Origin: Paludibacteraceae bacterium
GTDB lineage: Bacteria > Bacteroidota > Bacteroidia > Bacteroidales > Paludibacteraceae
Direction: 5' to 3'
Length of the DNA: 64,000 nt
NCBI GenBank assembly: GCA_017444065.1
Contig: JAFSXJ010000018.1
Coordinates: 1,778 to 65,777, forward strand
Position numbers and translations under genes: made by a program. The notes beneath the pieces are model-generated. The model had not been told where the DNA came from. It ran no database searches and saw nothing but the letters and a program-made list of their open reading frames with translations. This document shows, one piece after another, positions 28,034-52,527 of the stretch. The stretch's first letter is position 1. Every line of letters starts with the position of its first letter.

Positions 28034-28162
28034 CAACTTTTTGACTCCAAAAATCGCGATTTTCATACATTTTATCACACAAACATAGCATTTTATATTC
28101 ATTTTGCGCATGTGCGATGGATGTTTCACGGCAAAATATTTGCATATTTCAATAATTTTTCG

Positions 28163-28170
28163 TACCTTTG
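28163..28170 (+). promoter_or_regulatory. candidate -7 promoter box TACCTTTG immediately upstream of ubiE/menG (very short or absent leader)
   Basis: TAnnTTTG match ending 6 nt before ATG 28177. This argues against the TTG 28168 start in the ORF track. Confidence 0.3.
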
Positions 28171-28176
28171 CAGTCG

Positions 28177-28921: not shown

Positions 28922-31027
28922 TTATAGGCGCACCTCAATTGCCATCGTTCCCCACGCGCCGGGCATGAGGAGCGAGCCGTAGTCGTAGTAGTGGCGGTTC
29001 GTCATGTTCGTGCACTCGGCAGATATTTTGACGCGTTCGTTCTGCCAATAGACAGAGCCATCCAACAGTAATACAGGCTTATACGAGGTCACTATACCTT
29101 CCGCTGAGGTGTAGTCGCCTTCGCGTTTCTGCCAGCGCAGCGTCCACGACGCAGCCAGCACGCCGGTCTTCTTCGGCTCGCGCGACACCCAGATGCCGTG
29201 CTCTATTCCGAACACCAATTTATGACTCAGGTAGTCCAAGTATCGCGACTGCACCTCGTGCAAGTCGAGGTCAAGCCATGTGTACGCATAACTCACTTTC
29301 ACCTGCCTGAGCCACTCGGCCAACAGCCTGTGGCTGACGGCTGACGGCCTATATACCGCGGTCAGTTCGGTGCCGGCGCTGTTGATGCGCTGCTGGTTCA
29401 TGGCGTGGTACGGGCGGCGCGTGTCAGTCGGGACGTACACCCAGTCGATGATATCCGTTCCGCGGCGATACCAGGCATCGGCAGTGAGACTCAAGCCCTT
29501 GTAATCATATGTGCCGCCGAGTGAGAACGTCCACATCTTTTCCGGCTTCAGGTCTTTGCTGCCGAGCTGGTTGCCTGCGTCGTAGTTAAGGTCGGTGAAC
29601 GTGGGCATCCTGACCCCGCGCAGCGCGTTCAGATAGACCGAACTGCCGGGCAGATACTCGTACCCGATATTTGCGCCGCAGGTGTAGTGGTTGCCGAAGT
29701 AGGTGTTATAGATGCCGCTCACGCCGAGCGAGGCGTTGAGCCGGTCGTAGTGAAACGTCTGCCGGGCGAAGTATGTCAGGTTCACGCGGTTGGTGTCGCC
29801 GAGGTTCGTCGAGCGGATGTTCTCGTTGCGCAGTTCGATGCCGGCGGTTGTCGTCCCGAGCCACGAGATGTACGCGCCTTGCAGTCCGGCGGCAGCGGTC
29901 TGCAGCAGATGGGTGTTGCTGCCTGCGGGTTGTCCTCGATGCCACTCGTAGTGGTCATAGTTCGCGCGGTAGGCGGCTTTTGTTTCGAGGCTCCACGCTC
30001 CCCAATGATGCTTGTAGCGCGCCGAGCCGAAGGCTGTCCGCGTGGCATCGGACTGGTCGGTGCTGCCGCCGTAGAACAGTCCCGCACCGGCATCCTTGTA
30101 CTGCGCGCCGACCTGCACATCCAGGCCGCGCCAGCGCGTCTGCAGATAGATGTTCGCCCAGCGGCAGCCGTTGTTCACGAGTGCCTCGCGTTCCTTATCC
30201 GAGGGCGCAGGCGCGTAGTACCCGTCCGAGCGCGAGTACTCCGCCGAGGCGTTGACCTGCCATTCGCCCGACTGCCACGAGCCGGCAGCAGAAGGCTGAC
30301 AGAAGCCGTTCATGCCTGCCGCGAGTTTGAGTGCCAAGGGCAAGCGGCTAACCGCTACCGGCTGTGGCGCAGTCGTCACGATGTTCACCCCGTCCTGCAG
30401 CACCTCGATGCGTTCGATGAGCATCGGCGACACGGGCAGATGCAACGAGTAGTGTCCGGTCTGCGCGTCATTGACGGGGATACCGTTGAGCAGCACCTGC
30501 ACCTGGTCGAACGTGCCGCCGCGCATCGACAGGTCGCATTGCGCACCGTTCGCACCGCGCTTGCGCAGATCGAGCCCCGGCAGGTACTGGAATATATCCG
30601 CCACGGTGGTCACAGGCAGAGCGGCTATCTCGTTGCGCGAGACAGTGGATACCAGTCGGTAGGTGTTGGATTGAAGTTCAGCCTTGTCTGCAACCACCAA
30701 CACTTCCTGAACACTAAATTGCCGGTGGACGGAGGACTGACTCTGTGCGGTATCGGCGGTAGCGACGGAAACACCAACAGCTTCCGTCTCGTCCGCACTG
30801 TCCGCACAACCTCCCTGATCGCTTGCGAACGCAAGACTTGCGGGCGTCATCAGCAGTATGGCGAGCACAGCGGCTTTGCCGGCCTTGAGCAACTCAAGGT
30901 TGGCTACCGCGCCGCGGACGCGCCCGATGGTCACCTCGCGGTGCATCGAGCAGAACGCGGCGTAACCCTTGCGGCTCAACCGCTTGAAACGCAGACGCCG
31001 ACGACGAAAAAAAAGGTTTGTTCTCAT
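28922..31027 (-). CDS. TonB-dependent receptor
   Basis: Plug-domain motifs (DIFQYLPGLDLRKRG, SMRGGTFDQVQVLLNGIPVND) followed by a long beta-barrel. The N-terminus is unusually long and basic, so an internal start (MHREV...) is possible. Confidence 0.8.
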   Translation of the reverse strand: MRTNLFFRRRRLRFKRLSRKGYAAFCSMHREVTIGRVRGAVANLELLKAGKAAVLAILLMTPASLAFASDQGGCADSADETEAVGVSVATADTAQSQSSVHRQFSVQEVLVVADKAELQSNTYRLVSTVSRNEIAALPVTTVADIFQYLPGLDLRKRGANGAQCDLSMRGGTFDQVQVLLNGIPVNDAQTGHYSLHLPVSPMLIERIEVLQDGVNIVTTAPQPVAVSRLPLALKLAAGMNGFCQPSAAGSWQSGEWQVNASAEYSRSDGYYAPAPSDKEREALVNNGCRWANIYLQTRWRGLDVQVGAQYKDAGAGLFYGGSTDQSDATRTAFGSARYKHHWGAWSLETKAAYRANYDHYEWHRGQPAGSNTHLLQTAAAGLQGAYISWLGTTTAGIELRNENIRSTNLGDTNRVNLTYFARQTFHYDRLNASLGVSGIYNTYFGNHYTCGANIGYEYLPGSSVYLNALRGVRMPTFTDLNYDAGNQLGSKDLKPEKMWTFSLGGTYDYKGLSLTADAWYRRGTDIIDWVYVPTDTRRPYHAMNQQRINSAGTELTAVYRPSAVSHRLLAEWLRQVKVSYAYTWLDLDLHEVQSRYLDYLSHKLVFGIEHGIWVSREPKKTGVLAASWTLRWQKREGDYTSAEGIVTSYKPVLLLDGSVYWQNERVKISAECTNMTNRHYYDYGSLLMPGAWGTMAIEVRL

Positions 31028-31078
31028 GTGTCAAACATCAAAAACGGGTGCAAAGATACGGAAAATTTCTGACATTTG

Positions 31079-31086
31079 CAAATTTA
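31079..31086 (-). promoter_or_regulatory. candidate -7 promoter box (TAAATTTG on the minus strand) for the TonB-dependent receptor
   Basis: Plus strand reads CAAATTTA, whose reverse complement matches TAnnTTTG. About 52 nt upstream of ATG 31027. Confidence 0.3.
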
Positions 31087-31214
31087 GGCGGAGATTTTTT
31101 TGCAAGCATGTTACGTGTGGCACGATTTTTGCAGGTATAATATATGCATAAATCTGCAGCATCCGGCAGACAGTCTTTCACTTATGTCATGGTGAAGTGA
31201 CGGGAATCTCCCTG

Positions 31215-31254
31215 TAATCACACTCTAATCACAAAGAAACGACCCTGTAATCAC
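31215..31254. promoter_or_regulatory. three helically phased TAATCAC direct repeats (possible regulator binding sites)
   Basis: TAATCAC at 31215-31221, 31226-31232 and 31248-31254, with start-to-start spacing of 11 and 22 bp. Two are embedded in CCCTGTAATCAC. A related CCCTGTAATTGA lies at 31454-31465. Confidence 0.3.
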
Positions 31255-31407
31255 CCGGTTAGGTATCGACTCCGGGTCGAGTCAATGTCGGATAATATCC
31301 GACGGAAGGAACAATATGGAGAGGGTAAATTGCGGCTACAAAGGACAATATTTATTGAGAAAAACAAATTTTATTGCAAAATATTTGCAAATGTCATTTT
31401 TTTTTTG

Positions 31408-31415
31408 TATATTTG
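31408..31415 (+). promoter_or_regulatory. candidate -7 promoter box TATATTTG for the kinase / nucleotidyltransferase operon
   Basis: TAnnTTTG match about 52 nt upstream of ATG 31467. Confidence 0.3.
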
Positions 31416-31466
31416 CATGTTTTTTGCGAATCGTAATATTAATCATAATATTAGACCCTGTAATTG

Positions 31467-33014
31467 ATGCTACTATCACAACTATTCACACAAGCCACAG
31501 GCAAGAAGGCCGGCGAGCAGGTCGCCCTGACCGCGTCAGGCAGTAACAGGCGTTATTACCGTATCTTCAGCGATGACAAAGAAGTGTCGCTGATAGGCGT
31601 TCAAGGCACGTCGCGGGACGAGAACCACGCGTTCCTGACGATGGACAAACATTTCCTGAGTAAAGGTCTGAACGTGCCGCGCGTATTGGCGGTGAGCGAC
31701 GACGAGATGGCTTACGTCCAGGAGGACCTGGGCGACATGCTGCTGTTCAACTACATAGCCGAAGGCCGGAAGACCGGCGTGTTCTGCGAGAGCGAGAAAG
31801 GGATGCTTCGTCAGACCATCCGCGCTCTGGCACGGTTCCAGGTAGTGGGTGCCGAGGATTTTGATTTCCGCGTGTGCTACCCGCAGCCGGAGTTCAACCT
31901 GAGGAGCATCCGCTGGGACCTGAACTACTTCAAGTACTGCTTCCTGAAAGCCACAGGGCTGGAGTTCCAGGAGGACAAGCTGGAGAACGAATTCGAGCGG
32001 CTGGCGTATATCCTGCTGCAGCAGAAGAAGATGAACGCCTTCATGTACCGCGACTTCCAGAGCCGCAATGTCATGGTCGCCTTCGGCAATCGGGTCGCAC
32101 CGATGGCACCGGGTGCCATAAAAGCGACCGATGCCTCGGCTTCTCCCCAAAACAACGTTGCACGTTCTTTCGGTGACCCCAATAAAGAGGGAGAGCCAGT
32201 GCCGTACTTCATTGATTTCCAAGGCGGAAGGAAAGGTCCGGTGTATTACGACGTGGCATCGTTCCTATGGCAGGCGAAGGCGAACTTCCACGATGAGCTG
32301 CGTAACGAACTGATAGGCGAGTATCTGGACGAGCTGGGCAAGTACATGGAGGTGGACAAACAGGAGTTCTACAACACGCTGCGGCACTTCGTTCTGTTTA
32401 GGACGATGCAGGTGTTGGGCGCGTACGGTTTCCGCGGATACTTCGAGAAGAAGCCGCACTTCCTGCAATCGATTCCGTTTGCGATAGAGAACCTTAGGCG
32501 CCTGCTGAAGAACTCGGCGGACGATTATCCGTACCTCATCGAGGTGCTGCACGAGATGACGGAGATGAAGCAGTTCAAGGAGGTGGGTGTAAGAAAGCCG
32601 CTGGTGGTGAAGGTGTATTCGTTCTCGTACAAGAAAGGCATTCCTGCCGATGACAGCGGCAACGGCGGCGGCTTCGTGTTCGACTGCCGCGCTGTGAACA
32701 ACCCTGGCAAGTACGAACGCTACACGTACTTCACGGGAATGGACGAGCCGGTGATAAAGTTCCTGGAGCAGGACGGCGAGATTCTGCCGCTGCTGGATTC
32801 GGCATACAAGCTCGTTGACGCGAGCGTGAAGCGGTACATCGACCGCGGGTTCCGCAACCTGATGGTCAGCTTCGGCTGCACGGGCGGTCAGCACCGTTCG
32901 GTCTATGCGGCAGAGAAGATGGCGGAGCACCTGAACACGAAGTTCGGCGGAGAGGTGCGGCTCATCCACCGTGAGCAGAACGTAGAACGCACACTGGAGG
33001 AGCGCGAGAAATGA
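31467..33014 (+). CDS. APH-fold sugar kinase (AmgK-like anomeric MurNAc/GlcNAc kinase) fused to a RapZ C-terminal-like domain
   Basis: Kinase motifs YRDFQSRNVMV and FIDFQGGRKGPVYYDVASFL. The C-terminal ~140 aa resembles the RapZ/YvcJ C-domain (FDCRAVNNPG, LMVSFGCTGGQHRSVYAAEKMAEHL). The track start TTG 31464 is followed by ATG 31467. Overlaps the next gene by 4 nt. Confidence 0.75.
   Translation: MLLSQLFTQATGKKAGEQVALTASGSNRRYYRIFSDDKEVSLIGVQGTSRDENHAFLTMDKHFLSKGLNVPRVLAVSDDEMAYVQEDLGDMLLFNYIAEGRKTGVFCESEKGMLRQTIRALARFQVVGAEDFDFRVCYPQPEFNLRSIRWDLNYFKYCFLKATGLEFQEDKLENEFERLAYILLQQKKMNAFMYRDFQSRNVMVAFGNRVAPMAPGAIKATDASASPQNNVARSFGDPNKEGEPVPYFIDFQGGRKGPVYYDVASFLWQAKANFHDELRNELIGEYLDELGKYMEVDKQEFYNTLRHFVLFRTMQVLGAYGFRGYFEKKPHFLQSIPFAIENLRRLLKNSADDYPYLIEVLHEMTEMKQFKEVGVRKPLVVKVYSFSYKKGIPADDSGNGGGFVFDCRAVNNPGKYERYTYFTGMDEPVIKFLEQDGEILPLLDSAYKLVDASVKRYIDRGFRNLMVSFGCTGGQHRSVYAAEKMAEHLNTKFGGEVRLIHREQNVERTLEEREK
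32088..32189. repeat. structured ~100-bp repeat, copy 1 (in-frame inside the kinase gene)
   Basis: 102 bp, gap-free alignment to 33296-33397. Hairpin ATGGCACC-G-GGTGCCAT at 32103-32119, plus CTCCCCAAAAC and TTTCGGTGACCCCA blocks. Confidence 0.8.
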
Positions 33015-33871
33015 AAGCGATGATTTTTGCTGCGGGACTGGGGACACGTCTCAAGCCGCTGACCGATACGATGCCGAAAGCCTTGCTGCCGCTGGCAGGC
33101 AAGACGTTGCTGCAATGGCAGATTGAGCGGCTGCAGGCTGTCGGCATAACGGAGATAGTGGTGAACATCCACCACTTGGGGCAGCAGATTATCGACTACC
33201 TCAACGCCCACGACGGATTCGGCTGCACGGTGCAGATAAGCGATGAACGCGAGTCGCTGCTTGAAACAGGAGGCGGCTTACTGCGTGCCTTCGACAATCA
33301 GGTCGCACCGATGGCGCAAAGCACCATAAAAGCGACTGATGTCTCGTCACTTCCCCACCACGACCTTGTAGGTCGCGTCGGGGACCCCATGAATGAGCCG
33401 GTGCTGGTTTGCAATGTGGATATATTGTCGAACATCGACCTCGGGCAGCTGATAGCGGCGCACAGGCCTGACGACCTGGCAACGGTGGTGGTGTCGAACC
33501 GCGAGACGCAGCGGTACCTTCTGTTTTCCGGCGAGGGCGAGTTGCGCGGCTGGACGAACAAGAAGACGGGCGAGTACCGTCCGGCAAGTGCAGCCACGGA
33601 AGACCTGGTGCCGATGGCATTCTCGGGAATGCAGATTGTAGAGCCGGCGTTCTTCCGTGAACTAAGACAGACGCAGGCGGAGAAAGGCGAGAAGTTCTCG
33701 CTGATTGACGCCTACCTTTCGATTGTAACGCGGCAAGCGGGCACCATCCGTGCCTTCGTGCCGCGATACTATAAGATGATGGATGTGGGGAAGATTGACC
33801 AATTAGAGGACGCAGAACGCTTCGCTGAGCGTTTGGCAAACAACACTAACGGATGGTGCCCTGCACCATAA
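33011..33871 (+). CDS. sugar-1-phosphate nucleotidyltransferase (MurU-like)
   Basis: N-terminal MIFAAGLGTRLKPLTDTMPKALLPLAGK (G-x-G-T-R-L signature). Translationally coupled to the kinase gene (ATGA overlap). Confidence 0.8.
   Translation: MKAMIFAAGLGTRLKPLTDTMPKALLPLAGKTLLQWQIERLQAVGITEIVVNIHHLGQQIIDYLNAHDGFGCTVQISDERESLLETGGGLLRAFDNQVAPMAQSTIKATDVSSLPHHDLVGRVGDPMNEPVLVCNVDILSNIDLGQLIAAHRPDDLATVVVSNRETQRYLLFSGEGELRGWTNKKTGEYRPASAATEDLVPMAFSGMQIVEPAFFRELRQTQAEKGEKFSLIDAYLSIVTRQAGTIRAFVPRYYKMMDVGKIDQLEDAERFAERLANNTNGWCPAP
33296..33397. repeat. structured ~100-bp repeat, copy 2 (in-frame inside the nucleotidyltransferase gene)
   Basis: Same length and same codon phase as copy 1, roughly 70% identical by hand alignment. 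Encodes NQVAPMAQSTIKATDVSSLPHHDLVGRVGDPMNE. Confidence 0.8.
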
Positions 33872-33932
33872 ACCTCGTTGTTGCCTCCGCTCTCCCCAAA
33901 ACCAATCCAAGATTGCTTTCGGGGACCCCATC
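33851..33932. repeat. structured repeat, copy 3 (straddles the stop codon of the nucleotidyltransferase gene and the intergenic region)
   Basis: Hairpin ATGGTGC-CCT-GCACCAT followed by AA, which forms the TAA stop at 33869-33871. CTCCCCAAAAC and TTTCGGGGACCCCA blocks are shared with copy 1. Confidence 0.65.
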
Positions 33933-33948
33933 AAAAAAGTAAAAAAAG

Positions 33949-34881
33949 ATGTTAGGAGTAATCATTAATCCGAAATCAGGCAAGAAAGCCTACCGCATGC
34001 AGCGGATGTACCTGTGGAACCTGTTGCGCGAGCGCAAGATACCCTATGAGTTCCGCGTAACCAAATATGCCGCGCACGCCACCGAACTGGCGCGTGAACT
34101 GGTGGAAGACTTCAGTTGCGACGAGATACTCGTCATCGGCGGCGACGGCACGTTGTCGGAGACGCTGAACGGCATCATGCGCGCGAAGATTTCCGCCGAG
34201 CAGCGCCGTCAGATCAAACTCGGTCTCATGCCGCGCGGCACAGGCAACGACTGGGGACGCTACTGGAACCTGACGAAGAACTACCGCCAGGCGATTGAGC
34301 GCTTCCTGTCGGGCGAAGGACATCCGTTGGACGTGGGCTGCGTGACCTACTGGCGCAACCACATCGAGCATCACCGGTACTTCATCAACTCTGTGGGTTT
34401 CGGCGTTGACCCGCTCTGCTGCCAGAAAGCCGAGAAGCTGAAGTACTACCTCGGTTCGCACCACGTGAACTACCTGTTCGGACTGATAGGTGCCGTTGTA
34501 CAGCAGAAACCTATCCCGATGCAGCTCATCGTCGATGGCGAGGTGCTGGTGGATGAAGGGCTGTTCACGATGAACGTGGGCAACGGTCCGTTCTCCGGCG
34601 GCGGCATACGCCAGAACCCCGAAGCCGACCCGCAGGACGGCGTGTTCCATGCGATGTTTGTTTGCAAACCGACGTTGATACAGATCATCAAAGCGCTGCC
34701 GAACCTGTTCAACGGCAAGCTGACCGAACTGCCGTTCATCCATGCGTACAAAGGCAAGGACATCCGCATGGAGACCGATGAGCATCTGATGTTCGAGGCG
34801 GACGGTATCCTGCACGATGTGATGGGACCGACGGAGATTCACTGCATCCACCATGCGTTGCAGTTTAAGGTGAAGATGTAG
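33949..34881 (+). CDS. diacylglycerol-kinase-family lipid kinase (YegS/BmrU-like)
   Basis: GGDGTLSETLNG motif and MPRGTGNDW. 310 aa, a typical length. Confidence 0.8.
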   Translation: MLGVIINPKSGKKAYRMQRMYLWNLLRERKIPYEFRVTKYAAHATELARELVEDFSCDEILVIGGDGTLSETLNGIMRAKISAEQRRQIKLGLMPRGTGNDWGRYWNLTKNYRQAIERFLSGEGHPLDVGCVTYWRNHIEHHRYFINSVGFGVDPLCCQKAEKLKYYLGSHHVNYLFGLIGAVVQQKPIPMQLIVDGEVLVDEGLFTMNVGNGPFSGGGIRQNPEADPQDGVFHAMFVCKPTLIQIIKALPNLFNGKLTELPFIHAYKGKDIRMETDEHLMFEADGILHDVMGPTEIHCIHHALQFKVKM

Positions 34882-34908
34882 ATGACAATTGATAATTGAC
34901 AATTGACA
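34882..34908. repeat. heptamer tandem array TTGAYAA x4 at the lipid kinase/rsmH junction
   Basis: atgacaa ttgataa ttgacaa ttgaca, directly upstream of and overlapping the possible rsmH starts. Confidence 0.7.
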
Positions 34909-35840
34909 TTTTAGTGGAAGAGCAAGTTTATCATATTCCTGCGATGCTGAATGAGGTACTTGACGGGTTGCAGATTGCCCCTCACAAGCCACAGGTGTTC
35001 GTTGACGCCACGTTCGGCGGCGGCGGACACAGCAGGGGTATCATCGAGCGCATGGGCAAGGACTCACGGCTCTACGGCATCGACCAGGACCTTGACGCCT
35101 ATGCCAATCGCATTGACGACGAGCGGTTCACATTCATAAGGAGTAACTTCCGCTACGTGGCGAACTTCATGGATTACTACGGCGTGACGCAGGCGGACGG
35201 CATATTGGCAGACTTAGGTGTGAGTTTCCACCACTTCGACGCTGCCGAACGGGGATTCTCTTTCCGCTACGACGCGCTGCTGGACATGCGCATGAACAAC
35301 AGGCAGAGACTGTCGGCAAAAGATATAGTCAACACCTATGCGGAGGAAGACCTGGCGCGTGTGCTATACCTCTACGGCGAGTTCCGCGACTCGCGTTCGC
35401 TGGCGCAGCAGATTGTCCGCAAGCGTTCAGCCCAGGCGATAGAGACGACCCAGCAACTGCTTGACAGCGTCCGTCTGCGCGACAAGCAGGATGCTGCACG
35501 ACTGTTCCAGGCACTGCGTATCGAGGTGAACGACGAACTGGGGGCATTGCGTGAACTGCTGGAAGCCTCCACGCAACTGCTGGCACCGGGCGGAAGGCTG
35601 GTCATCCTCACCTACCATTCGCTGGAGGACCGCATCGTCAAGAACTTCATGCGATCGGGCAACACCGAAGGCACGATAGAGAAGGATTTCTATGGTAACC
35701 CGCTTACCCCCTTCAAGGTGATTGAGAAAGGGCGCACCGCCTCAACCGAAGAAGTGGAGCGCAACCCGAGAGCCCGCAGCGCCAAACTGCGCATTGCGGA
35801 AAAGACCGCTTCGCTGAAAGAACAAAGACCGTTTCACTAA
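34896..35840 (+). CDS. rsmH: 16S rRNA (cytosine1402-N4)-methyltransferase
   Basis: YHIPAMLNEVLDGL, TFGGGGHS, ILADLGVSFHHFD and SLEDRIVKNF. Start uncertain: TTG 34896 or GTG 34914. Confidence 0.9.
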   Translation: MTIDILVEEQVYHIPAMLNEVLDGLQIAPHKPQVFVDATFGGGGHSRGIIERMGKDSRLYGIDQDLDAYANRIDDERFTFIRSNFRYVANFMDYYGVTQADGILADLGVSFHHFDAAERGFSFRYDALLDMRMNNRQRLSAKDIVNTYAEEDLARVLYLYGEFRDSRSLAQQIVRKRSAQAIETTQQLLDSVRLRDKQDAARLFQALRIEVNDELGALRELLEASTQLLAPGGRLVILTYHSLEDRIVKNFMRSGNTEGTIEKDFYGNPLTPFKVIEKGRTASTEEVERNPRARSAKLRIAEKTASLKEQRPFH

Positions 35841-35857
35841 AAGAAAAAAGACTGCTA

Positions 35858-36175
35858 ATGGACAAGCGACTGACTTTACTGCAAAAAATTCTGAACGGAG
35901 ATATCTTCCGCAACGAGAAAGTGGCACAGCAATACCGGCTGCTGGCACTGATTGGCGTGTACATCTTCGTGAGCATACTGATGGGCTTCATCTCCGAATG
36001 GCAATACGTACGAATCGGCTCGCTGAAGAAAGAGCTGCAGGACGCGCGCAACGAAGAACTGACCATCAGTTCCGAACTGGTGAACAGCACCCGTCAGTCA
36101 GCCGTCGCCCGTTCGCTACGCGAGAACGGCAGCACGCTGCGCGAACCCAATACGCCCGTCATTGTAATAAAATAG
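35858..36175 (+). CDS. FtsL-like cell division protein (Bacteroidetes type)
   Basis: 105 aa, a single TM segment (LLALIGVYIFVSILMGFI) followed by a coiled coil. The position between rsmH and the PBP gene is canonical. Confidence 0.7.
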   Translation: MDKRLTLLQKILNGDIFRNEKVAQQYRLLALIGVYIFVSILMGFISEWQYVRIGSLKKELQDARNEELTISSELVNSTRQSAVARSLRENGSTLREPNTPVIVIK

Positions 36176-38091: not shown

Positions 38092-39546
38092 ATGATACTA
38101 TCTGATTTATTAACTGCCATCGAGCCACTACGCGTCATTGGGCGCACGGACATTGACGTTCACGCCATCCAATTCGACTCACGCAAGGTCGAAGCCGGTG
38201 ACCTCTTCGTCGCACAAGCCGGTACGGCTGTTGACGGGCACACATTCATCCCTTCCTGTATAGAGAAAGGTGCTCGTGTCATCGTCCTCGACAACCCCGA
38301 CTACCTGCCTCAGCAGCCGTCCGCCGATGTGACCTGCGTGCTCGTCAAGAGTTCCGAGGAAGCACTCGGCCGCCTTGCCCATCATTGGTACGGTCGCCCG
38401 AGCGAGCACTTGACGCTGGTCGGCGTCACCGGCACCAACGGCAAGACCACCATCGCCACGCTGCTGTATAATATGGTGCGTGCCATGGGGCACAAGGCAG
38501 GATTGCTCTCCACCGTCGTCTATTATGTGGACGGTCAGGCGTTCCCTTCCACGCACACCACACCCGACGCTCTTGCGCTCAACGCCCTGCTGGCGCAGAT
38601 GGTTGAGGCAGGCTGCGAGTACGCGTTCATGGAGGTCAGCAGCCACTCGATAGCGCAGGAGCGTATAGCCGGACTGCAGTTCGCCGGAGCGATGTTCACC
38701 AATCTTACGCGTGACCATATCGACTACCACAAGACCTTCGACAACTACCGCGACACGAAGAAGCGCCTCTTCGACAACCTCGGCAAGAACGCCTTTGCCG
38801 TCACCAATGCCGATGACAAGAACGGCCTCGTCATGACGCAGAACACCCGCGCGAAGGTCTATACCTACTCTACGCAGACGATGGCGGACCACCGCGGCAA
38901 GATATTGGAGGAGGGTTTTGACGGCATGCTGCTCAGCATCGACGGGCAGGAGGTGTTTGTGCCGCTCGTCGGACGGTTCAATGTCAGCAACCTGCTGTGC
39001 ATCTACAGCGCCGCTTTGTGTCTGGGCTTTGACAAGCTCGAAGTCCTGCGCGTACTCAGTGCCCTCAAACCCGTCAACGGACGCTTTGAGACCATCCGCT
39101 CGCCCAAAGGCTGGACGGCGATTGTCGATTATGCCCACACGCCCGATGCAGTGGATAATGTCATCCAGACCATCCGTGAGATAAAGAAAGCCACAAACAA
39201 GCTGATAACGGTTGTCGGCTGCGGCGGCAACCGCGACAAAGGCAAACGCCCGATGATGGCGCAGATCGCCAAGCGCGGCAGCGAGCAGCTCATCCTCACC
39301 TCTGACAACCCCCGTGACGAAGAGCCGCGCGACATCCTCAGCGACATGACTGCCGGTCTGACCGAAGACGAGCTCCGCAGCACCCTTGTGATAGAGGACC
39401 GTGCTGCGGCTATCCAGACCGCCTGCACCCTGGCGCAGTCCGGCGATGTCATCCTCGTTGCCGGCAAGGGGCATGAGGACTACCAGATCATCAAAGGCGT
39501 GAAGCACCACTTCGACGATCACGAGCAAGTACGCAAGTACATCTGA
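38092..39546 (+). CDS. murE: UDP-N-acetylmuramoyl-L-alanyl-D-glutamate--2,6-diaminopimelate ligase
   Basis: GVTGTNGKTT P-loop, the DNPR motif (LTSDNPRDEEP), and the dcw position after the PBP gene. Confidence 0.9.
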   Translation: MILSDLLTAIEPLRVIGRTDIDVHAIQFDSRKVEAGDLFVAQAGTAVDGHTFIPSCIEKGARVIVLDNPDYLPQQPSADVTCVLVKSSEEALGRLAHHWYGRPSEHLTLVGVTGTNGKTTIATLLYNMVRAMGHKAGLLSTVVYYVDGQAFPSTHTTPDALALNALLAQMVEAGCEYAFMEVSSHSIAQERIAGLQFAGAMFTNLTRDHIDYHKTFDNYRDTKKRLFDNLGKNAFAVTNADDKNGLVMTQNTRAKVYTYSTQTMADHRGKILEEGFDGMLLSIDGQEVFVPLVGRFNVSNLLCIYSAALCLGFDKLEVLRVLSALKPVNGRFETIRSPKGWTAIVDYAHTPDAVDNVIQTIREIKKATNKLITVVGCGGNRDKGKRPMMAQIAKRGSEQLILTSDNPRDEEPRDILSDMTAGLTEDELRSTLVIEDRAAAIQTACTLAQSGDVILVAGKGHEDYQIIKGVKHHFDDHEQVRKYI

Positions 39547-39648: not shown

Positions 39649-40854
39649 ATGACAGATATTGAGAAGAATAATCAGGACATTATCCCGTTGTCCCAAGCAG
39701 TTGAAGCGATTAAAACCGCTATTCTGCAAGGGCAGTATGAAGCCAATAAAGGTGTCAACCGCATCCAGTTGGCTGTCTATTTTGCTATTGGCAAATATCT
39801 CTCCAAGAACACACGCAACTTGGAATATGGTGCCGGTGCCATCAAGGCTATCAGCGACAAAATACATAAAGACCTACCCGGTTTGCGTGGCTATTCGGCT
39901 AGTAACCTCAAAAATATGCGTCGTTTCTATGAAGAGTGGATATTATTAGATGCTGAAAATCAAAACATTCAACAATCGCCAATCGCAATTGGCGAATCTT
40001 CTCAAGAATCGACAATCGCGGTTGGCGATTTACAAGACACACAAAATCAGATAGATATATATCGCGCTATCTGTGTGCCCAATATCACAGAATTTCCTGT
40101 AGATGATTTCTTTGCTGTGCCTTTCACCCATCATATCCGGATCATCGAGAAGACCAAAGACCTTGAGGCACGTTACTACTATATCCATCGCACGGCCGTA
40201 GAAAAACTCTCTGTTGATGCGCTTGAGAGATTAATCAGGCAGCAGGCTTACGAGAAACGGGAGCAGATACCGAATAATTTCCGCCAAACGCTATCCGGTT
40301 CGGCACTGGCACGCAAGGCGGTAATGATGTTCAAGGATTCATACCAATTGGACTTCATCAATACGGAGCAGATTGGAGAACGCGACAAACAGGATGTGGA
40401 TGAAAAAGAGGTGGAACAGCAGATTATTCATAATATCAAGCAGTTCATCATGACGTTCGGGCAGGATTTCACCTTTGTCGGCAATCAGTACCATCTGGAG
40501 ATTTACGGAGAGGACTTCTTCCCTGATTTGATTTTCTTCAACCGCGAACTGAATGCGTTAGTGGTCGTAGAACTGAAGATCGGTGAATTCAAACCGAGTT
40601 ATTTGGGCACCCTGACGGCTTACCTTCAGATTCTGGATACTAAGGTGCGCAAGCCGCACGAGAACCCGTCTATCGGTATCGTCCTCTGCAAATCGGCTAA
40701 TAAGCAGTTTGTTGAATTTGTTATTCAAAAATTCGACAGCCCGATGGGAGTAGCCACTTATACGACAGCCGCCGATATGCCCGAAGAACTCCGCAAAGCT
40801 CTGCCCGACATGGACGAACTGAAACGTATCATGGCAAAAGAAGGCGAAAAATAG
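39649..40854 (+). CDS. DUF1016/YhcG-family PD-(D/E)xK nuclease domain protein
   Basis: 401 aa. The C-terminal PDLIFFNRELNALVVVELKIGEF is a D...ELK nuclease motif. The N-terminal helical domain is typical of YhcG-like proteins. Confidence 0.75.
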   Translation: MTDIEKNNQDIIPLSQAVEAIKTAILQGQYEANKGVNRIQLAVYFAIGKYLSKNTRNLEYGAGAIKAISDKIHKDLPGLRGYSASNLKNMRRFYEEWILLDAENQNIQQSPIAIGESSQESTIAVGDLQDTQNQIDIYRAICVPNITEFPVDDFFAVPFTHHIRIIEKTKDLEARYYYIHRTAVEKLSVDALERLIRQQAYEKREQIPNNFRQTLSGSALARKAVMMFKDSYQLDFINTEQIGERDKQDVDEKEVEQQIIHNIKQFIMTFGQDFTFVGNQYHLEIYGEDFFPDLIFFNRELNALVVVELKIGEFKPSYLGTLTAYLQILDTKVRKPHENPSIGIVLCKSANKQFVEFVIQKFDSPMGVATYTTAADMPEELRKALPDMDELKRIMAKEGEK

Positions 40855-40885
40855 GTTTTGAAATAATCGTTCCAAAGGACAAGAA

Positions 40886-40995
40886 CACTTGTGTTTGCCA
40901 TTTGAATATTGCAATATCGCGGAAAAAGAAAGAATCTGAGATGTTCCTTGGAGCCTGTGACAAGATATAGCACTATGTTGCGGTAATTTTGCAAG
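40886..40995. repeat. ~110-bp direct repeat R1, copy 1 (upstream of the KilA-N gene; contains TAATTTTG at 40984-40991)
   Basis: Aligns with 42097-42205. The 24-mer GTGACAAGATATAGCACTATGTTG is identical in both copies. Confidence 0.8.
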
Positions 40996-41074
40996 TGATT
41001 TCCCGAGACGGGTGATTGGCAGAGGAGCAAATGAAGATAAAGTGGTCGAATTTGACCACATAAATGATAAAGCT

Positions 41075-41899
41075 ATGGCGGTAAGAAAGATTAACATTGA
41101 TGAGTCGGAGATTTCCGTTATCTTCGGCATGCACGATGATGATTATATCTGCTTGACCGATATGGTCAAAGCAGGAGATAATAGCGATCGGACTAATATA
41201 GTTATTCAGAACTGGATGCGTCGCAAGGATACTATCTCATATCTAGGCGTGTGGGAAAATCTGCATAATCCGAATTTTAAAAGCATCGAATTCGATGCAA
41301 TTAGAAATGCATCCGGTACTAACCGTTTTATTCTTACAGCTAAAGAATGGATTGAGCGAACCAATGCAATCGGTATTATTGCTAAAAGTGGACGCTATGG
41401 AGGCACGTATGCCCATAAGGACATTGCGTATCACTTTGGAATGTGGCTTTCCCCGGAATTCAACCTGCTTGTTGTTAAAGAGTTCCAACGGCTGAAAGAG
41501 GAAGAGCAGAAGGCACTTGGCTGGTCAGCAAAGCGTGAGTTGGCTAAGATCAACTATCATATCCATACGGACGCCATCAAAGCCAATCTTGTGCCGCAGG
41601 AGATTGATACATACCACCGTTCGCTTATCTATGCCAACGAAGCCGATGTACTCAATGTGGCGTTGTTCGGAATGACAGCCAAAGAGTGGCGTGACGCGCA
41701 TCCGGATGACAAAGGCAATATCCGCGATTACGCGACCATCAATCAGTTGATTTGCTTGAGTAACATGGAGAACCTGAATGCGGTCTTTATCAACGAAGGC
41801 ATGCCGCAACAGGAACGCCTGCACAAACTCAACCAGATTGCCATTCAGCAAATGACAGTGTTGGAGAATGTTGAATCAAGGAAAATCTTAAACGCATAA
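41075..41899 (+). CDS. KilA-N domain-containing protein
   Basis: ICLTDMVKAG...IQNWMRRKDTISYLGVWE...GGTYAHKDIAYHFGMWLSPEF is typical KilA-N. Start moved to ATG 41075 (MAVRKINIDE); the track start at 41012 is non-ATG and lies immediately after repeat R1. Confidence 0.75.
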   Translation: MAVRKINIDESEISVIFGMHDDDYICLTDMVKAGDNSDRTNIVIQNWMRRKDTISYLGVWENLHNPNFKSIEFDAIRNASGTNRFILTAKEWIERTNAIGIIAKSGRYGGTYAHKDIAYHFGMWLSPEFNLLVVKEFQRLKEEEQKALGWSAKRELAKINYHIHTDAIKANLVPQEIDTYHRSLIYANEADVLNVALFGMTAKEWRDAHPDDKGNIRDYATINQLICLSNMENLNAVFINEGMPQQERLHKLNQIAIQQMTVLENVESRKILNA

Positions 41900-42096
41900 A
41901 TACGCGAACAAAACCAAGCGAAAGAAAAGGTGCTAAAGAAAAAATAAACAAAGCGGCATCGTCAAATAGAGTAAAAGTAATCAAAAAAAAATAGAGTAAA
42001 CCCTACGATTAGCCCGACGAGGATTTGGAAAGAGCCTGACAGGGATAGGCAAACAGCCATCAAATAGAGAGTGAAAGGACGATGCGAGAGATGACA

Positions 42097-42205
42097 CACT
42101 TGTTTGCTATTTGCATGTTACAATATTGAGGAAAAAGAAACAATAAAAGATGTTTTTGGGGGATAGTGACAAGATATAGCACTATGTTGTTGTAATTTTG
42201 CATTG
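42097..42205. repeat. ~110-bp direct repeat R1, copy 2 (upstream of the GNAT-fusion gene; contains TAATTTTG at 42193-42200)
   Basis: See copy 1. About 80% identity by hand alignment, with one 1-nt gap. Confidence 0.8.
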
Positions 42206-42298
42206 AGAAATAAAAAAAGCACGGACATTAGTAAAAAAATCTAATTAGTTTCGCATATTATACATACCATAGCACAAAATAATGCAGAATAAATTACA

Positions 42299-43372
42299 AT
42301 GAATATGGATAATCTTACATTAAAACCGTTTTCGGGAATCGAATTGAAAGACCATTTCTTCGATTCATTGCGGGACAATTATGAAGGCTTTGATAAGTGG
42401 TTCCAGAGCAAAGCGCAATCAGGCGCAAAAGCTCTTGTATACTACGACAATTCATTGCTAAAGGATTTCCTATATCTGAAAGATGAAAACGAAGAGTTGC
42501 AATTAGATGGAAAAACATTACCTGCACAAAAGCGACTTAAAGTCGGGACCTTCAAGATTGAGCGCAGAGGCACTAATCGGGGAGAACGCTTTATGAAACG
42601 GATTCTTGACGTCGCGATTCAATACGGCTTTCCGGAAATTTATGTAACTATGTTTGATGACACAGACGAGTTAATGCATTTGCGCCATTTCTTTGAAACA
42701 TATGGTTTTTCTGAAATCGGTAGGAAATCACATCCCAATGGACGTAGTGAGAGCGTGCTCCTTCGAGACATGACAAAACACATAGGCAATATTGTTACTA
42801 ACTATCCGTTCGTTAATATGCTATCTGGCAACAAATATCTACTTTCAATAAAGCCGGAGTTTCATACTAAATTGTTTCCGGATTCTATTCTGCAAACAGA
42901 GCGATATAGTATTCTGCAAGATGTTAGCCCTACCAATAGTATTAACAAGATTTATATATGTTGGATGCATGGCGTGCAAAGTTTGAAGCCACTTGATAAA
43001 GTGATTATTTACAGGACTTCTGACGGAAAGGGGTATGCCATATACCGAAGTGTCGCCACATCTGTATGCACGGTCTCTGAAGTTAAAACGGTAAATGATT
43101 TTACTGATATTGACGATTTTATACGATATGTCAACAAGTATAGTGTATTTAAAGAGCATGACTTGCGATACTGGTACAATGTTAAGCCAAATTTTGTCGT
43201 AATAAAGATGCTATATAACATTGCATTTCAAAAGAAAGTTATTCGGAAAGACATAATAGAGCAAGCAGGTATACCATCAGATGCATACTGGGGCTTCCAA
43301 CAACTAAATAATGAACAATTTAATCAACTGTTAACTTTAGGTAACGCAGATGGACGCTATATTGTCAATTAA
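42299..43372 (+). CDS. GNAT-like acetyltransferase fused to a C-terminal ASCH/PUA-like domain
   Basis: The N-terminal ~165 aa has a GNAT core pattern (KVGTFKIERRGTNRGERFMKRILDVAIQYGFPEIYVTMF...LRHFFETYGFSEIG). The C-terminal ~190 aa starts YLLSIKPEFHTKLF, echoing the ILSIKPVYANQIL start of the downstream ASCH protein. Confidence 0.55.
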   Translation: MNMDNLTLKPFSGIELKDHFFDSLRDNYEGFDKWFQSKAQSGAKALVYYDNSLLKDFLYLKDENEELQLDGKTLPAQKRLKVGTFKIERRGTNRGERFMKRILDVAIQYGFPEIYVTMFDDTDELMHLRHFFETYGFSEIGRKSHPNGRSESVLLRDMTKHIGNIVTNYPFVNMLSGNKYLLSIKPEFHTKLFPDSILQTERYSILQDVSPTNSINKIYICWMHGVQSLKPLDKVIIYRTSDGKGYAIYRSVATSVCTVSEVKTVNDFTDIDDFIRYVNKYSVFKEHDLRYWYNVKPNFVVIKMLYNIAFQKKVIRKDIIEQAGIPSDAYWGFQQLNNEQFNQLLTLGNADGRYIVN

Positions 43373-43733
43373 ACCCGTTTATGCCAATCAGATATTGGCA
43401 GGGACGAAGAAAGTTGAATTTCGCAAGCGGAGATTCAAAGAGGATGTACGTAGAGTGTATATCTATTCCTCTATGCCGGTTAAGCAGATTGTGGGGTATT
43501 TTACTTTTTCCACAATCGACGAAGACACTCCCGCCAATTTGTGGAATAAATACAAAGAGATTGGCGGTATAGCTCATGATGATTTCTTTGGCTATTATGC
43601 GAATAATGTTTCCGGATGTGCGCTGGTTATAAAATCAGTCACCTCATTCAAGAAAGGTAAGAGCCCGAATGATTTTATAGATGATTTTGTTCCTCCGCAA
43701 TCTTATGTTTATTTAGATACGACTGCAGATTGA
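43350..43733 (+). CDS. ASCH domain protein
   Basis: 127 aa. MDAILSIKPVYANQILAGTKKVEFRKRRF is a classic ASCH N-terminus. Overlaps the upstream gene by 23 nt. Confidence 0.7.
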   Translation: MDAILSIKPVYANQILAGTKKVEFRKRRFKEDVRRVYIYSSMPVKQIVGYFTFSTIDEDTPANLWNKYKEIGGIAHDDFFGYYANNVSGCALVIKSVTSFKKGKSPNDFIDDFVPPQSYVYLDTTAD

Positions 43734-43795
43734 CGAACGAAGCTAAAAGAAGCGGAAGAAAAAGAAATATATGAAACACATAATATAAAAGTAGT

Positions 43796-44596
43796 ATGGA
43801 AGATGAAAAAGAAATAGCAAAAGTTGCACTGCCTGAATTATTCAAAGGGGGAATGCAGGTTGTGTCTCAATTTTATAAAGATTTAGCACAACCAACAATA
43901 CAAACCATTGGCAAGACTTTGAATACCACTTTTGAGTTTGCTACAATTCCAGCATTAGCATTAGGATTTGCAACAGAGAAAGTCCGATTGAATTTTGCTA
44001 AAAGGCTTGAAGAGTACAAGAAAAAACTTGACAAAGTCCCAGAAGAAGATAGATGTGTTGTGGAGCCAGAGATAGGAGAGCCTATTATTCGTAATTTGAT
44101 GAATACTACTAATAATCAAATTGCAGATTTATTCACGACCTTATTAACTAATGCCTCGAATATCAAAACGCTGGATAAAGCCCATCCTAAATTTGCACAG
44201 ATAGTCTTAAATCTAACTCCAGACGAAGCAAAAATAATCCAATATTTACAAGACAAAGACGAGGTTTATTATGTAGATTTTAGAGGAAAATTTGAAAAAG
44301 GAGATGGTTTTTATACTTGGGAGTCGTATGTGACAATATTGCCTGATGAAATTAAATTTGATTACTCCGAAAATTGCAATGCGTATATATCGAACTTGAT
44401 TAGTTTGGGTATATTATTAGATAAGTCAGGAACATTCAAAATGAATGATACTATATACAAAAAAATTGAGAGTATCCATAAACCAAGATTGGAAAAACAA
44501 TTAGTTCCTAATATGTTTACCAAAATTACTACAAAAAGGAGTTATTTGCAAGTAACAGATTTCGGACGATTGTTTATTGATGCTTGCATATCATGA
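43796..44596 (+). CDS. Abi-alpha (DUF4393) abortive-infection-like protein
   Basis: YKDLAQPTIQTIGKTL, KKLDKVPEEDRCVVEPEIGEPIIRNL, DLFTTLLTNAS, HPKFAQIVLNLTPDEAKIIQYL. Matches the Abi-alpha pattern as I remember it. Confidence 0.6.
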   Translation: MEDEKEIAKVALPELFKGGMQVVSQFYKDLAQPTIQTIGKTLNTTFEFATIPALALGFATEKVRLNFAKRLEEYKKKLDKVPEEDRCVVEPEIGEPIIRNLMNTTNNQIADLFTTLLTNASNIKTLDKAHPKFAQIVLNLTPDEAKIIQYLQDKDEVYYVDFRGKFEKGDGFYTWESYVTILPDEIKFDYSENCNAYISNLISLGILLDKSGTFKMNDTIYKKIESIHKPRLEKQLVPNMFTKITTKRSYLQVTDFGRLFIDACIS

Positions 44597-44632
44597 TATA
44601 ATATTATCCACGACAAATAATAAAAATAGCAT

Positions 44633-46750: not shown

Positions 46751-46753
46751 GGT

Positions 46754-48244: not shown

Positions 48245-48247
48245 GTT

Positions 48248-49180
48248 ATGGACTTTTATAGTAAGAATAGTTATTCTTTAGATGATATAAAGTACCTTAT
48301 AAATAATGAGGTTGAAGAAAATATACACCTTGATTATAAGGCTGCTGGGGCATTGGCAAAGGATGACAAGAAACGCGTGGAAATCACTAAAGATGTTTCG
48401 GCATTTGCCAATTCAGATGGTGGCATTATTGTTTATGGTATTGCAGAATATGACCACAGACCCAAAGAGATAAGTCCCATAGATGGCCGAATATATACTA
48501 AAGAATGGTTGGAAAATGTCATACACCTAATTCAGCCGAGAATAGAGGGGCTAAAAATATATCCTATAAGAATTGGTGATTTAGAGAAATCAATATATAT
48601 CGTGCAAATACCAAAGAGCGATAGTGCTCCGCACATGGCGAATAATCATTGTTACTATGGGCGTAAAAATTTTCAATCACTTCCGTTAAAAGATTATGAA
48701 GTTAAAGAATTGTATAATCGAGTGTCTATCCCAAAACTATTGATTGATAATTGTGCGTTCTATGTGGAGGAAGAAAATCGAGATACAATAACATATCATT
48801 TAGCGGCAGCAGTAATTAATCATGGAAAACGCGCATGTGAGTCATATAAATTTAACTTTTATATTAATAATGCTCAATATTGCGATATATCATATAGGAC
48901 TTTAGAAGAGAAGAACGCTTATACCCTTTTGGAGCACAATAGAATTAAACTTAGTTCTTGTTCGCAAGCGCCAATATATCCCACAGAACATTTAGATATG
49001 GGACATTTCCGTATAACTGTCAAAAAAAGATATAAAGAATTGTTCCTGTATAATCTTGTAATAGAACTGATGCTTTTTTATGGAAGTGAAAAGGAGAACT
49101 TGGCTTTTGTCCCTTTAACAGGAGAATTCATAGAAGAACGCGATAAAATTACCAAATTACTTATGGAAAAGGATTTGTGA
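48248..49180 (+). CDS. AlbA_2 (Schlafen-like putative DNA-binding) domain protein with an unknown C-terminal domain
   Basis: EENIHLDYKAAGAL...ITKDVSAFANSDGGIIVYGI...IYIVQIPKSDSAPH matches the AlbA_2 pattern. The C-terminal ~150 aa is unassigned. Confidence 0.55.
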   Translation: MDFYSKNSYSLDDIKYLINNEVEENIHLDYKAAGALAKDDKKRVEITKDVSAFANSDGGIIVYGIAEYDHRPKEISPIDGRIYTKEWLENVIHLIQPRIEGLKIYPIRIGDLEKSIYIVQIPKSDSAPHMANNHCYYGRKNFQSLPLKDYEVKELYNRVSIPKLLIDNCAFYVEEENRDTITYHLAAAVINHGKRACESYKFNFYINNAQYCDISYRTLEEKNAYTLLEHNRIKLSSCSQAPIYPTEHLDMGHFRITVKKRYKELFLYNLVIELMLFYGSEKENLAFVPLTGEFIEERDKITKLLMEKDL

Positions 49181-50013: not shown

Positions 50014-50079
50014 ATAAAGCGCCCCCTCTCTGCTTTCAATCGAGCCAATAATCCAAACAGAAAGAGAAAGCAGAAACAG
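50014..50079. repeat. ~65-bp direct repeat r, copy 1 (immediately after the GIY-YIG stop codon)
   Basis: ATAAAGCGccCcCTCTcTGCTTtCAA...CAATAATCCAAACAGAAaGA... aligns with 55561-55626. Confidence 0.7.
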
Positions 50080-50124
50080 TATTGCAGAAAATAGAAATAT
50101 TAACATCATAAATAGAATGATAAG

Positions 50125-51134: not shown

Positions 51135-51190
51135 AAAAACTTGCATTTTGAGTGATAGATTTTGACATCGTTCATACACATATATAGCAC

Positions 51191-51991: not shown

Positions 51992-52022
51992 AACCAACAG
52001 AGAAGAATAGAAAACACTGAAT

Positions 52023-52523: not shown

Positions 52524-52527
52524 AACT

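Follow-up and report, generated by a model that had tools for sequence, protein, structure and literature searches.

A Dispersed, Structured Repeat of About 104 Nucleotides Within Two Cell-Wall-Recycling Genes of a Paludibacteraceae Bacterium

1. Introduction

That selfish palindromic repeats can colonise genes in frame is textbook knowledge for Rickettsia and poorly documented elsewhere. Here, we describe a short structured repeat that occurs three times in a cell-wall-recycling operon of a Paludibacteraceae bacterium (Bacteroidota; Bacteroidales): in frame inside a kinase gene, in frame inside the adjoining gene for a MurU-like nucleotidyltransferase (NT), and across the 3′ end of the latter. 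The window, by which we mean the whole stretch of DNA analysed, comprises 64 kb (contig JAFSXJ010000018.1 of assembly GCA_017444065.1, positions 1,778 to 65,777), and the coordinates of the copies within it were set by a family-wide alignment of the repeat. Our literature search returned no description of this element, nor of any repeat family in Paludibacteraceae, and no account of in-frame gene colonisation by such repeats in Bacteroidales was found.

2. The Operon and Its Three Repeat Copies

The AmgK/MurU recycling pathway is established in Pseudomonas and Tannerella, and the kinase of the operon is putatively labelled AmgK-like on the grounds of its fold and its position beside the MurU homologue. 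Both host open reading frames (ORFs) are open throughout, and family motifs flank each insert (Table 1). The kinase insert corresponds to residues ~206–241, after the DFQSRN motif of the catalytic loop and before the IDFQGG motif, and the NT insert to residues ~93–128; the local alignment of the NT to its best PDB matches, 4y7t and 8hhd, ends at residue 94, where the insert starts.

Table 1. Repeat copies, host genes, and promoter of the cell-wall-recycling operon (positions in the window)
Feature	Position	Strand	Description
Copy 1 of repeat	32078..32181	+	104-nt core, in frame inside the kinase gene, encodes AFGNRVAPMAPGAIKATDASASPQNNVARSFGDP
Copy 2 of repeat	33286..33389	+	104-nt core, in frame inside the MurU-like NT gene, encodes AFDNQVAPMAQSTIKATDVSSLPHHDLVGRVGDP
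Copy 3 of repeat	33828..33930	+	103-nt core, different subfamily (CTAAC/AAAAC-type stems), straddles the NT gene 3′ end
Host gene 1	31464..33014	+	APH-fold (AmgK-like) kinase of 516 aa that carries a fused RapZ/PapZ C-terminal-like domain
Host gene 2	33011..33871	+	286-aa NT, MurU homologue (N-acetylmuramate alpha-1-phosphate uridylyltransferase)
Operon promoter, Bacteroidetes-type	TTTG 31384-31387, TATATTTG 31408-31415	+	read from the sequence; consensus PMC7366714

A repeat search of the window pairs positions 32079–32189 with 33287–33397 as a gap-free match of 111 nt at 75% identity, to which a three-way alignment adds a third copy near 33830–33932. The original prediction, made from the letters of the DNA alone, had proposed such copies in both genes in a single codon phase, and both points hold. 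Its 102-bp boundaries, on the other hand, require revision, the cores of copies 1 and 2 being 104 nt long and starting ~10 nt upstream of where they had been placed; the conserved A/T-rich and GGG tail of copy 1 extends to ~32192. The third copy, previously put at 33851–33932, does lie in a different codon phase and does supply the last codons and the stop, but it starts 23 nt further upstream. The window contains the block TCGGKGACCCCA 3 times, versus 0.32 expected (0/100 shuffles reach 3), and nhmmer searches with profiles of the copies detected no fourth copy in the 64 kb.

Copies 1 and 2 differ in the type of their 3′ hairpin, and the peptides that they encode are ~53% identical, versus 75% for the DNA. 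Peptides that span the inserts would include VAPMAPGAIK and ATDASASPQNNVAR. Relative to the closest insert-free orthologues, the net gain is 30 aa in the kinase (516 versus 486) and 28 aa in the NT loop, and not the 34 aa per gene that had been proposed, because a few native loop codons have been lost. At the 3′ end of the NT gene, the last 13 codons (R-L-A-N-N-T-N-G-W-C-P-A-P, RLANNTNGWCPAP; residues 274–286, with the protein ending ...NNTNGWCPAP) and the TAA at 33869–33871 come from copy 3, the remainder of which falls within the spacer ahead of the following gene, whose ATG is at 33949.

AlphaFold2 assigns the NT a mean predicted local distance difference test (pLDDT) score of 86 with a 120-sequence alignment; the score falls below 50 at residues 97–126, between helix 85–94 and strand 131–135, and also at the copy-3-derived residues 282–286. 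The kinase model has a mean pLDDT of 72, with values below 50 at residues 208–241, between strands 202–206 and 244–248, in the turn that joins the DFQSRN and IDFQGG motifs. On these models, both inserts are predicted to be disordered surface loops within otherwise confident folds, in line with the placement originally expected.

3. Anatomy and Folding of the Unit

The unit begins with CGC[G/C]TTCGGCAA and ends with TCGGGGACCCCA, and measures ~104 nt, or up to ~115 nt with a tail: beyond the right end, many copies (including copy 1) stay conserved for 8–10 nt, which form an A/T-rich stretch followed by GGG. RNAalifold on 32 copies gives two hairpins. The 5′ hairpin is long and has ATGssGC/GCssCAT as its apical stem (ATGGCAC/GTGCCAT at 32103–32119 in copy 1); the 3′ hairpin is shorter and closed by TCCCC/GGGGA. 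Both pairings anticipated for the repeat, namely the 5′ hairpin of copy 1 and that of CTCCCCAAAAC with TTTCGGGGA, are part of this consensus structure. Over 31 pairs, including the inner stem, 92.8% of the cells are paired, versus 30–46% when the partners are slid, and the covariation score is 0.421 versus 0.127 in shuffles (0/500 reach 0.421), with both sides changed in 20 of the 31 pairs (columns 13–59, for example, are CG in 11 copies, UA in 8, AU in 7, and GC in 5). Each window copy also folds better than its own shuffles (z = -2.7 to -4.8), and the claim of a structured unit stands.

The pairing cells comprise 935 Watson–Crick, 18 G.U, and 29 A.C combinations, and the last two counts give no preference for a strand of function; this Watson–Crick-dominated profile resembles a DNA palindrome more closely than a typical functional RNA. 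At E ≤ 1 over positions 30500–35000, Rfam yielded no match to the element and only two chance-level matches elsewhere in the region. In many copies the 3′ hairpin has (C/T)GTC at its foot and the tail reads ...CCA, and GTAG is found at neither end. In each of the six frames, 12–22 of the 32 copies are free of stop codons, and a GC-rich unit of this kind could be read through in a tolerant loop-coding segment because most frames lack stop codons.

4. A Family Dispersed in Rumen and Gut Bacteroidales

Three invariant blocks served as a search pattern (CATAAA N16-25 TCCCCA N12-24 TCGGKGRCCCCA). Among one-genome-per-species representatives, the pattern has 24 exact matches, which lie on both strands and on many contigs, all but one (partial) in rumen or gut Bacteroidales or Paludibacteraceae metagenome-assembled genomes (MAGs); a further 52 exact matches come from metagenome contigs, and viral contigs gave 0. 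With nhmmer, 103 matches, nearly all full length, were obtained over 630 kb of DNA, and 94 good copies reduce to ~71 sites after clustering by flank similarity. From the pattern scans and nhmmer together, the family amounts to ~100 copies at ~70 distinct sites.

The size of the family bears directly on whether the three window copies arose by local duplication, or by gene conversion between the adjoining genes, without a dispersed family behind them. Such an origin would suit their arrangement, as all three are on one strand within 1.85 kb, the other 62 kb of the window are empty, and copies cluster in other loci as well. It is refuted by the ~100 copies in unrelated contexts elsewhere, whose absence the original prediction had named as a refuting outcome and which make gene conversion unnecessary; the membership of copy 3 in another subfamily, the different 3′ hairpins of copies 1 and 2, and the independent presence or absence of each copy in relatives (section 5) speak against it too, and we regard it as scarcely tenable.

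At locus L055 (871–1221, − strand), three different variants stand head to tail, joined by exactly AAT and followed by an intrinsic terminator, and the first of them carries, nested in its apical loop, a ~40-nt fragment that resembles the element's own 3′ hairpin. This array, with its nested fragment, shows signs of repeated insertion, whereas L066 is a plain tandem duplication of the element.

5. Presence and Absence in Relatives

Comparison with orthologues shows how independent the three copies are. In the NT, the loop between GGGLLxA and PxLVCNVD has 9 residues in 69 of the 120 closest cluster representatives, and the full element-derived segment is present in only 4 of the 120 (P0001, P0002, P0006, and P0012). 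In the kinase, only 4 of 104 representatives have the full segment (P0127, P0130, P0137, and P0149), and in P0128 and P0132, the closest ones (96% identical apart from the insert), the loop is short and reads APSKENPDE. The inserts sit between family motifs that these two kinases and the 69 NT representatives join by a short loop, as had been proposed, and the segments are lineage-specific.

These counts also dispose of the idea, the other refuting outcome named with the original prediction, that the segments are ancestral loops of the two enzyme families, conserved at the protein level. The similar peptides in one phase, and host loops that vary in length among orthologues, would be in keeping with it. 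It is nonetheless refuted by insert-free orthologues at 85–96% protein identity and by the few carriers just listed, and it accords neither with the peptides of copies 1 and 2 being less alike than their DNA, nor with copy 3 being read in another frame, nor with most family members being non-coding, nor with the lack of structure in the AlphaFold2 inserts; we give it virtually no credence.

DNA alignments of orthologous operons resolve the copies individually. Copy 1 is present only in the window and L034 and is absent from L033, L002, and L001, the first two of which are the closest orthologous loci (89% DNA identity). Copy 2 is shared by the window and L001, occurs in diverged form in L004 and L005, and is missing from L002 and L033, and copy 3 is present in the window and L007/L008 (P0004) and absent from L001, L002, and L033. 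Each copy is therefore present or absent among close relatives independently of the others.

At the kinase site, moreover, the element and its host gene tell different histories. In L034 the gene is 82% identical to that of the window and the element core is 92% identical to copy 1, whereas in L035 and L036 the genes are 86% and 81% identical and the cores only 62% and 68%, both being different variants with an identical left junction. This disagreement points to the kinase site as a probable hotspot of recurrent insertion or copy replacement; simple vertical inheritance would not be expected to produce it. Decayed remnants can also be recognised, in the kinase loop of P0169 (AYGDRVAPTAQSANPEDGV; AYGDRVAPTAQ...) and in the NT loop of L006 (TGCCTTTGGCAA).

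In both enzymes, the insert-bearing loop varies in length among orthologues, and unrelated inserts occupy it in other lineages. In the kinase loop (P0168, P0184, P0205, P0170, P0174-P0197, and P0204), these include PLHKFENLKISKFEDSKLPDSKSSNLQILKSSND, repeats of SNQKSEFRNQNSEINEQE, and an internal duplication of ELVPYFIDFQGG...HPDLRE in P0204; other repeat families may account for some of them. The first NT loop has yet another type of insert in some orthologues (TSSLTSLPLEGESEG), and a second NT loop, after TGE(Y/V)RP, has inserts of 20–30 aa in some lineages (P0039, P0053, and P0111-P0118; LTPNPIGVSARNTQRGDLTTNPL; LVSSLNILPPTGEADLQAKPTYQ).

6. Genomic Placement: Genes, Promoters, and tRNAs

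The position inside genes is not typical of the family, most copies being intergenic and promoter-proximal. Copies within genes account for ~4 of ~68 distinct sites and are secure only for the two in this operon: a codon-usage coding score makes clear in-gene calls solely at the kinase and NT sites, and two L016 copies in the N-terminal region of a DUF3987 protein are borderline. The copies at L019 and L085, placed within genes by naive ORF calling, were rejected as in-gene copies and are really 5′ untranslated region copies directly after a promoter. In-frame colonisation, as originally claimed, is thus upheld for two enzymes but is the exception for the family. A peptide-profile search for more in-frame carriers passed 24 candidates through a word prefilter and gave 6 matches, which are 52–75-aa ORF calls; it missed the window's own two proteins, and hence provides no count.

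Of the 64 intergenic copies, 50 share the strand of their downstream gene and 14 do not (38 and 11 of 49 sites), and 22 of the 50 sense copies are within 60 nt of the start codon. Divergent regions hold 15 copies and convergent regions 0; between co-directional genes, 18 copies (17 sites) are sense and 11 (9 sites) antisense. The genes downstream are functionally unrelated (tyrS, cstA, an MMPL transporter, an outer membrane protein, GH53, and tuf), and several copies have been retained at the orthologous position in more than one MAG, as in L026 and L031 upstream of cstA.

In 19 of 93 copies, base 1 of the element is preceded within 14 nt by the end of a sigma-ABfr −7 box (TAnnTTTG), versus 0.65% at random positions, and in 14 copies (12 sites) the distance between the two is exactly 4 nt. 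Bacteroidetes −7 boxes stand at a characteristic spacing from the transcription start, and because of this geometry base 1 lies at about the transcription start at such sites. The promoter consensus and the leader lengths have been described for Bacteroidetes, with a median Bacteroides leader of 32 nt (PMC7366714), and at the −7-box sites the spacer from the element to the start codon fits a normal Bacteroides leader. The promoter of the operon studied here has no adjoining repeat copy, unlike those 12 sites.

The other boundary is that of tRNA genes. At 6 of the 31 tRNA genes in the DNA examined, base 1 begins 1–2 nt past the 3′ end on the same strand (5 sites), and 3 further copies adjoin the 5′ end of a tRNA gene on the opposite strand, 2–4 nt away (3 sites). 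Three of the six are among the four tRNAs of a cluster upstream of tuf (Thr-TGT, Tyr, Gly, and Thr-GGT; L047 963–1792, − strand), and a full or partial copy follows each of the three by 1–2 nt.

As an alternative reading, the unit may be mainly a functional structured RNA, for example a 5′-terminal stem-loop module that stabilises or regulates mRNAs or a small RNA processed from transcripts, which would persist on account of this role, with the in-gene copies as by-products. The same-strand bias and the closeness to start codons agree with this, as do the 12 sites at which the element would begin at about the transcription start and be followed by a leader of normal length, the 5 sites after tRNA 3′ ends, where tRNA processing would give the RNA its 5′ end, and the retention of several copies at orthologous positions. 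It is harder to reconcile with the functional diversity of the downstream genes, the antisense copies between co-directional genes, the opposite-strand abutment to tRNA 5′ ends, and G.U pairs that are as rare as A.C mismatches, unlike in typical functional RNAs; nor are the absence of an Rfam match, the copies inside coding regions, and the head-to-tail arrays of different variants expected of it. We consider a primary RNA function possible though rather doubtful; it is compatible with mobility and competes with the insertion of a mobile repeat mainly on why copies persist. A cis-regulatory RNA or riboswitch in the narrower sense was rejected, as there is no consistent gene family downstream and no Rfam match.

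Two further explanations of site choice were examined and set aside. Insertion just 3′ of any hairpin would be expected to leave a hairpin upstream, and one is found in 42% of upstream flanks versus 34% of controls (p = 0.12), with a small shift in folding energy (p = 0.025). Homology-guided capture, for which empty sites should resemble the two ends of the element, finds a high-ranking site only for copy 3 (5th of ~2,300 positions, L033), the kinase and NT sites being unremarkable.

7. Origin and Mechanism of Spread

In our judgement, the three segments probably arose by independent insertion of one dispersed DNA repeat, a small non-coding and non-autonomous one whose occurrence is confined to a clade of rumen and gut Paludibacteraceae-like Bacteroidales. 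From its distribution, we infer that the element is, or was, mobile and depends on functions encoded elsewhere. In the kinase and the MurU homologue, the inserted copy would be translated as a ~30-aa disordered surface loop, and at the 3′ end of the MurU gene, copy 3 would have replaced the native C-terminus, with the stop codon drawn from its CATAAA block. Copies may persist where they do little harm, that is, at transcript starts, in tRNA spacers, and in surface loops.

Several observations weigh against this reading. Per-genome copy number appears low, which is unusual for families of the REP or RPE (Rickettsia palindromic element) type, the highest exact-match count in a species-representative MAG being 7 (UBA1180). 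The sense bias, the skew between divergent and convergent regions, and the start at about +1 of promoters could reflect an RNA-level role instead. The ends show no terminal inverted repeats (left end CGCGTTCGGCAA versus TGGGGTCCCCGA, the reverse complement of the right end), filled and empty sites (window, L001, L002, L033, L034, L035, and L036) show no target-site duplication, and the flanks of 68 copies reveal no fixed target tetranucleotide, with T at position −1 in 35 of them. Among 20 neighbouring genes scanned in flanks of 8–14 kb, there is no transposase or recombinase, none being a Y1 transposase, and no autonomous partner was found in the flanks examined. At the filled sites, a few native bases have been replaced; the flanks of the 68 copies contain no direct repeat, and positions −2 to −5 show weak preferences only.

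As to how such a repeat would move, we propose, as a tentative suggestion that stays short of an even chance, mobilisation at the DNA level in the form of folded single-stranded DNA, because there are neither terminal inverted repeats nor a target-site duplication, hairpins lie near both ends, and the covariation is dominated by Watson–Crick pairs. The enzyme would act in trans and recognise the folded strand; candidates are a transposase of the HUH/Y1 type, as with IS200/IS605 derivatives and REPs, and a different recombinase guided by structure. Its insertion would favour the edges of transcription units and of tRNA genes.

Spread through an RNA intermediate, that is, retro-copying of a leader RNA, would account for base 1 coinciding with RNA 5′ ends at transcription starts and after tRNA cleavage (12 sites at −7 boxes and 5 at tRNA 3′ ends), and for defined ends that lack inverted repeats and duplications. 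A retro-copy, however, brings no promoter, so that many independent promoter-abutting copies are not predicted; opposite-strand abutment to tRNA 5′ ends, the absence of a reverse transcriptase from the flanks examined and of an A-tail, and covariation dominated by Watson–Crick pairs also argue against this route, which we hold to be very unlikely. A template/variable repeat pair of a diversity-generating retroelement was likewise rejected, the differences between copies 1 and 2 not being adenine-specific (judged by eye only).

For the insertion of a mobile DNA repeat, the abutments admit a stronger version, in which the mechanism that places the element recognises, to the exact nucleotide, the limits of transcription units or RNA-gene units, and the copies inside the genes of this operon would be off-target events. 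Base 1 at 3 nt after the preceding copy in the head-to-tail array counts towards this alongside the −7-box and tRNA abutments. We judge it unlikely. If true, this would be a bacterial mobile element of a kind not described before, aimed at promoters and tRNA genes in functional analogy to the targeting of Ty3 or Tf1 in yeasts.

8. Comparison with Known Repeat Families

Ogata and co-workers reportedly described in 2000 that RPEs are inserted in frame in genes. These are small palindromic repeats that lie within unrelated genes in a manner compatible with the protein fold, and they also occur between genes (PMC10969869, a review of MITEs, transposable elements of the miniature inverted-repeat kind). 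The likeness to the present family is that palindromic, non-coding repeats of ~100–150 bp are read as extra peptide segments; here, the AlphaFold2 models keep the fold and give the inserts pLDDT values below 50. The differences are that nearly half of the RPE copies in R. conorii are intragenic, versus ~4 of ~68 sites here; that the present family is strongly promoter- and tRNA-proximal, and its per-genome copy number seems much lower; and that it belongs to another phylum, which would make homology unlikely.

The original prediction had called the repeat small, non-autonomous, and MITE- or REP-like, of which the structured and dispersed nature stands and the class labels in their classical sense do not. 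Like a classical MITE, the element is small, non-coding, multi-copy, and polymorphic for presence and absence, but it lacks the terminal inverted repeats and the target-site duplication. For REPs and REPINs (RAYT; GTAG and CGTC superfamilies), movement as folded single-stranded DNA through HUH/Y1 transposases has been proposed, and they have neither terminal inverted repeats nor target-site duplications (PMC3733652). The present element shares with them its structure, these absences, its occasional occurrence in genes, and its clustering, and its (C/T)GTC and ...CCA tail are reminiscent of the CGTC class. Nevertheless, REPs are single palindromic stem-loops of 20–40 bp with a GTAG or CGTC tag at one end (PMC3733652), whereas the unit here has ~104 nt, folds into two unlike hairpins, and is bounded by fixed ends that are not palindromic; the usual place of REPs is downstream of genes, where the ORFs are unidirectional or converge, in contrast to the 0 convergent and 15 divergent copies counted here; and no RAYT gene is near any copy among the flanks scanned. 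Length, two-hairpin architecture, and opposite genomic bias rule against identity with REPs or REPINs.

PATEs, palindrome-associated elements that derive from IS200/IS605, have no terminal inverted repeats or target-site duplication, have hairpins near both ends, and insert with an orientation bias, all of which applies to the present element. They insert, however, 3′ of a fixed target of 4–5 nt, whereas here a weak T preference at −1 is seen and no TnpA/TnpB with matching ends was found; a non-autonomous element of the IS200/IS605 type was rejected for want of a fixed target sequence. Correia/NEMIS repeats of Neisseria and ERIC repeats of enterobacteria are likewise structured repeats of ~100–150 bp that lie in 5′ leaders, are often co-transcribed, may affect mRNA processing or stability, and are occasionally intragenic (in part from PMC10969869). 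Both have terminal inverted repeats, and Correia a TA duplication, none of which is seen here. To our knowledge, nucleotide-precise abutment to transcription starts or tRNA ends has not been reported for Correia or ERIC.

Set against these systems, the two in-frame copies extend the Rickettsia phenomenon to free-living gut and rumen anaerobes and to enzymes of peptidoglycan recycling, in which particular surface loops are hit repeatedly. For population genetics at the strain level in uncultured rumen Paludibacteraceae, the family could provide a marker, and the element-bearing enzymes are a natural test of tolerance to loop insertions. What could prove new is the abutment to promoters and tRNA genes, and if it reflects targeting, it would point to a new way of site choice for a bacterial mobile element.

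9. Other Features of the Window

A 49-nt repeat (28124–28172 and 31369–31417; 78% identity) corresponds to the clade's extended promoter consensus (TTTGCAAAT...TAnnTTTGCA) and sits upstream of two divergent or neighbouring genes. Further along, an AT-rich island of ~16 kb (39649–55600) interrupts the dcw cluster between murE (38092–39546) and a 423-aa ORF (55640–56911), presumed to be mraY. Its cargo comprises a YhcG/DUF1016 PDDEXK nuclease, a KilA-N protein, Abi-alpha, an Eco57I-like N6 methylase, and further ORFs. In the relative L002, mraY directly follows murE, and in L006 a different island (Fic/RhuM) occupies the junction, because of which the murE–mraY junction appears to be an integration hotspot for defence-type cargo. 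Within the island, an unrelated pair of 109-nt direct repeats (40885–40993 and 42094–42202; 80% identity) flanks the KilA-N gene (41012–41899) at a spacing of 1209, whose closeness to that of the repeat studied here is a coincidence. A short AAAGACCGCTTCGCTGAAAGAAC-like direct repeat (61–76% identity) at 35800–35876, the rsmH/ftsL junction, and at 54385–54438 may be another small repeat or a chance similarity.

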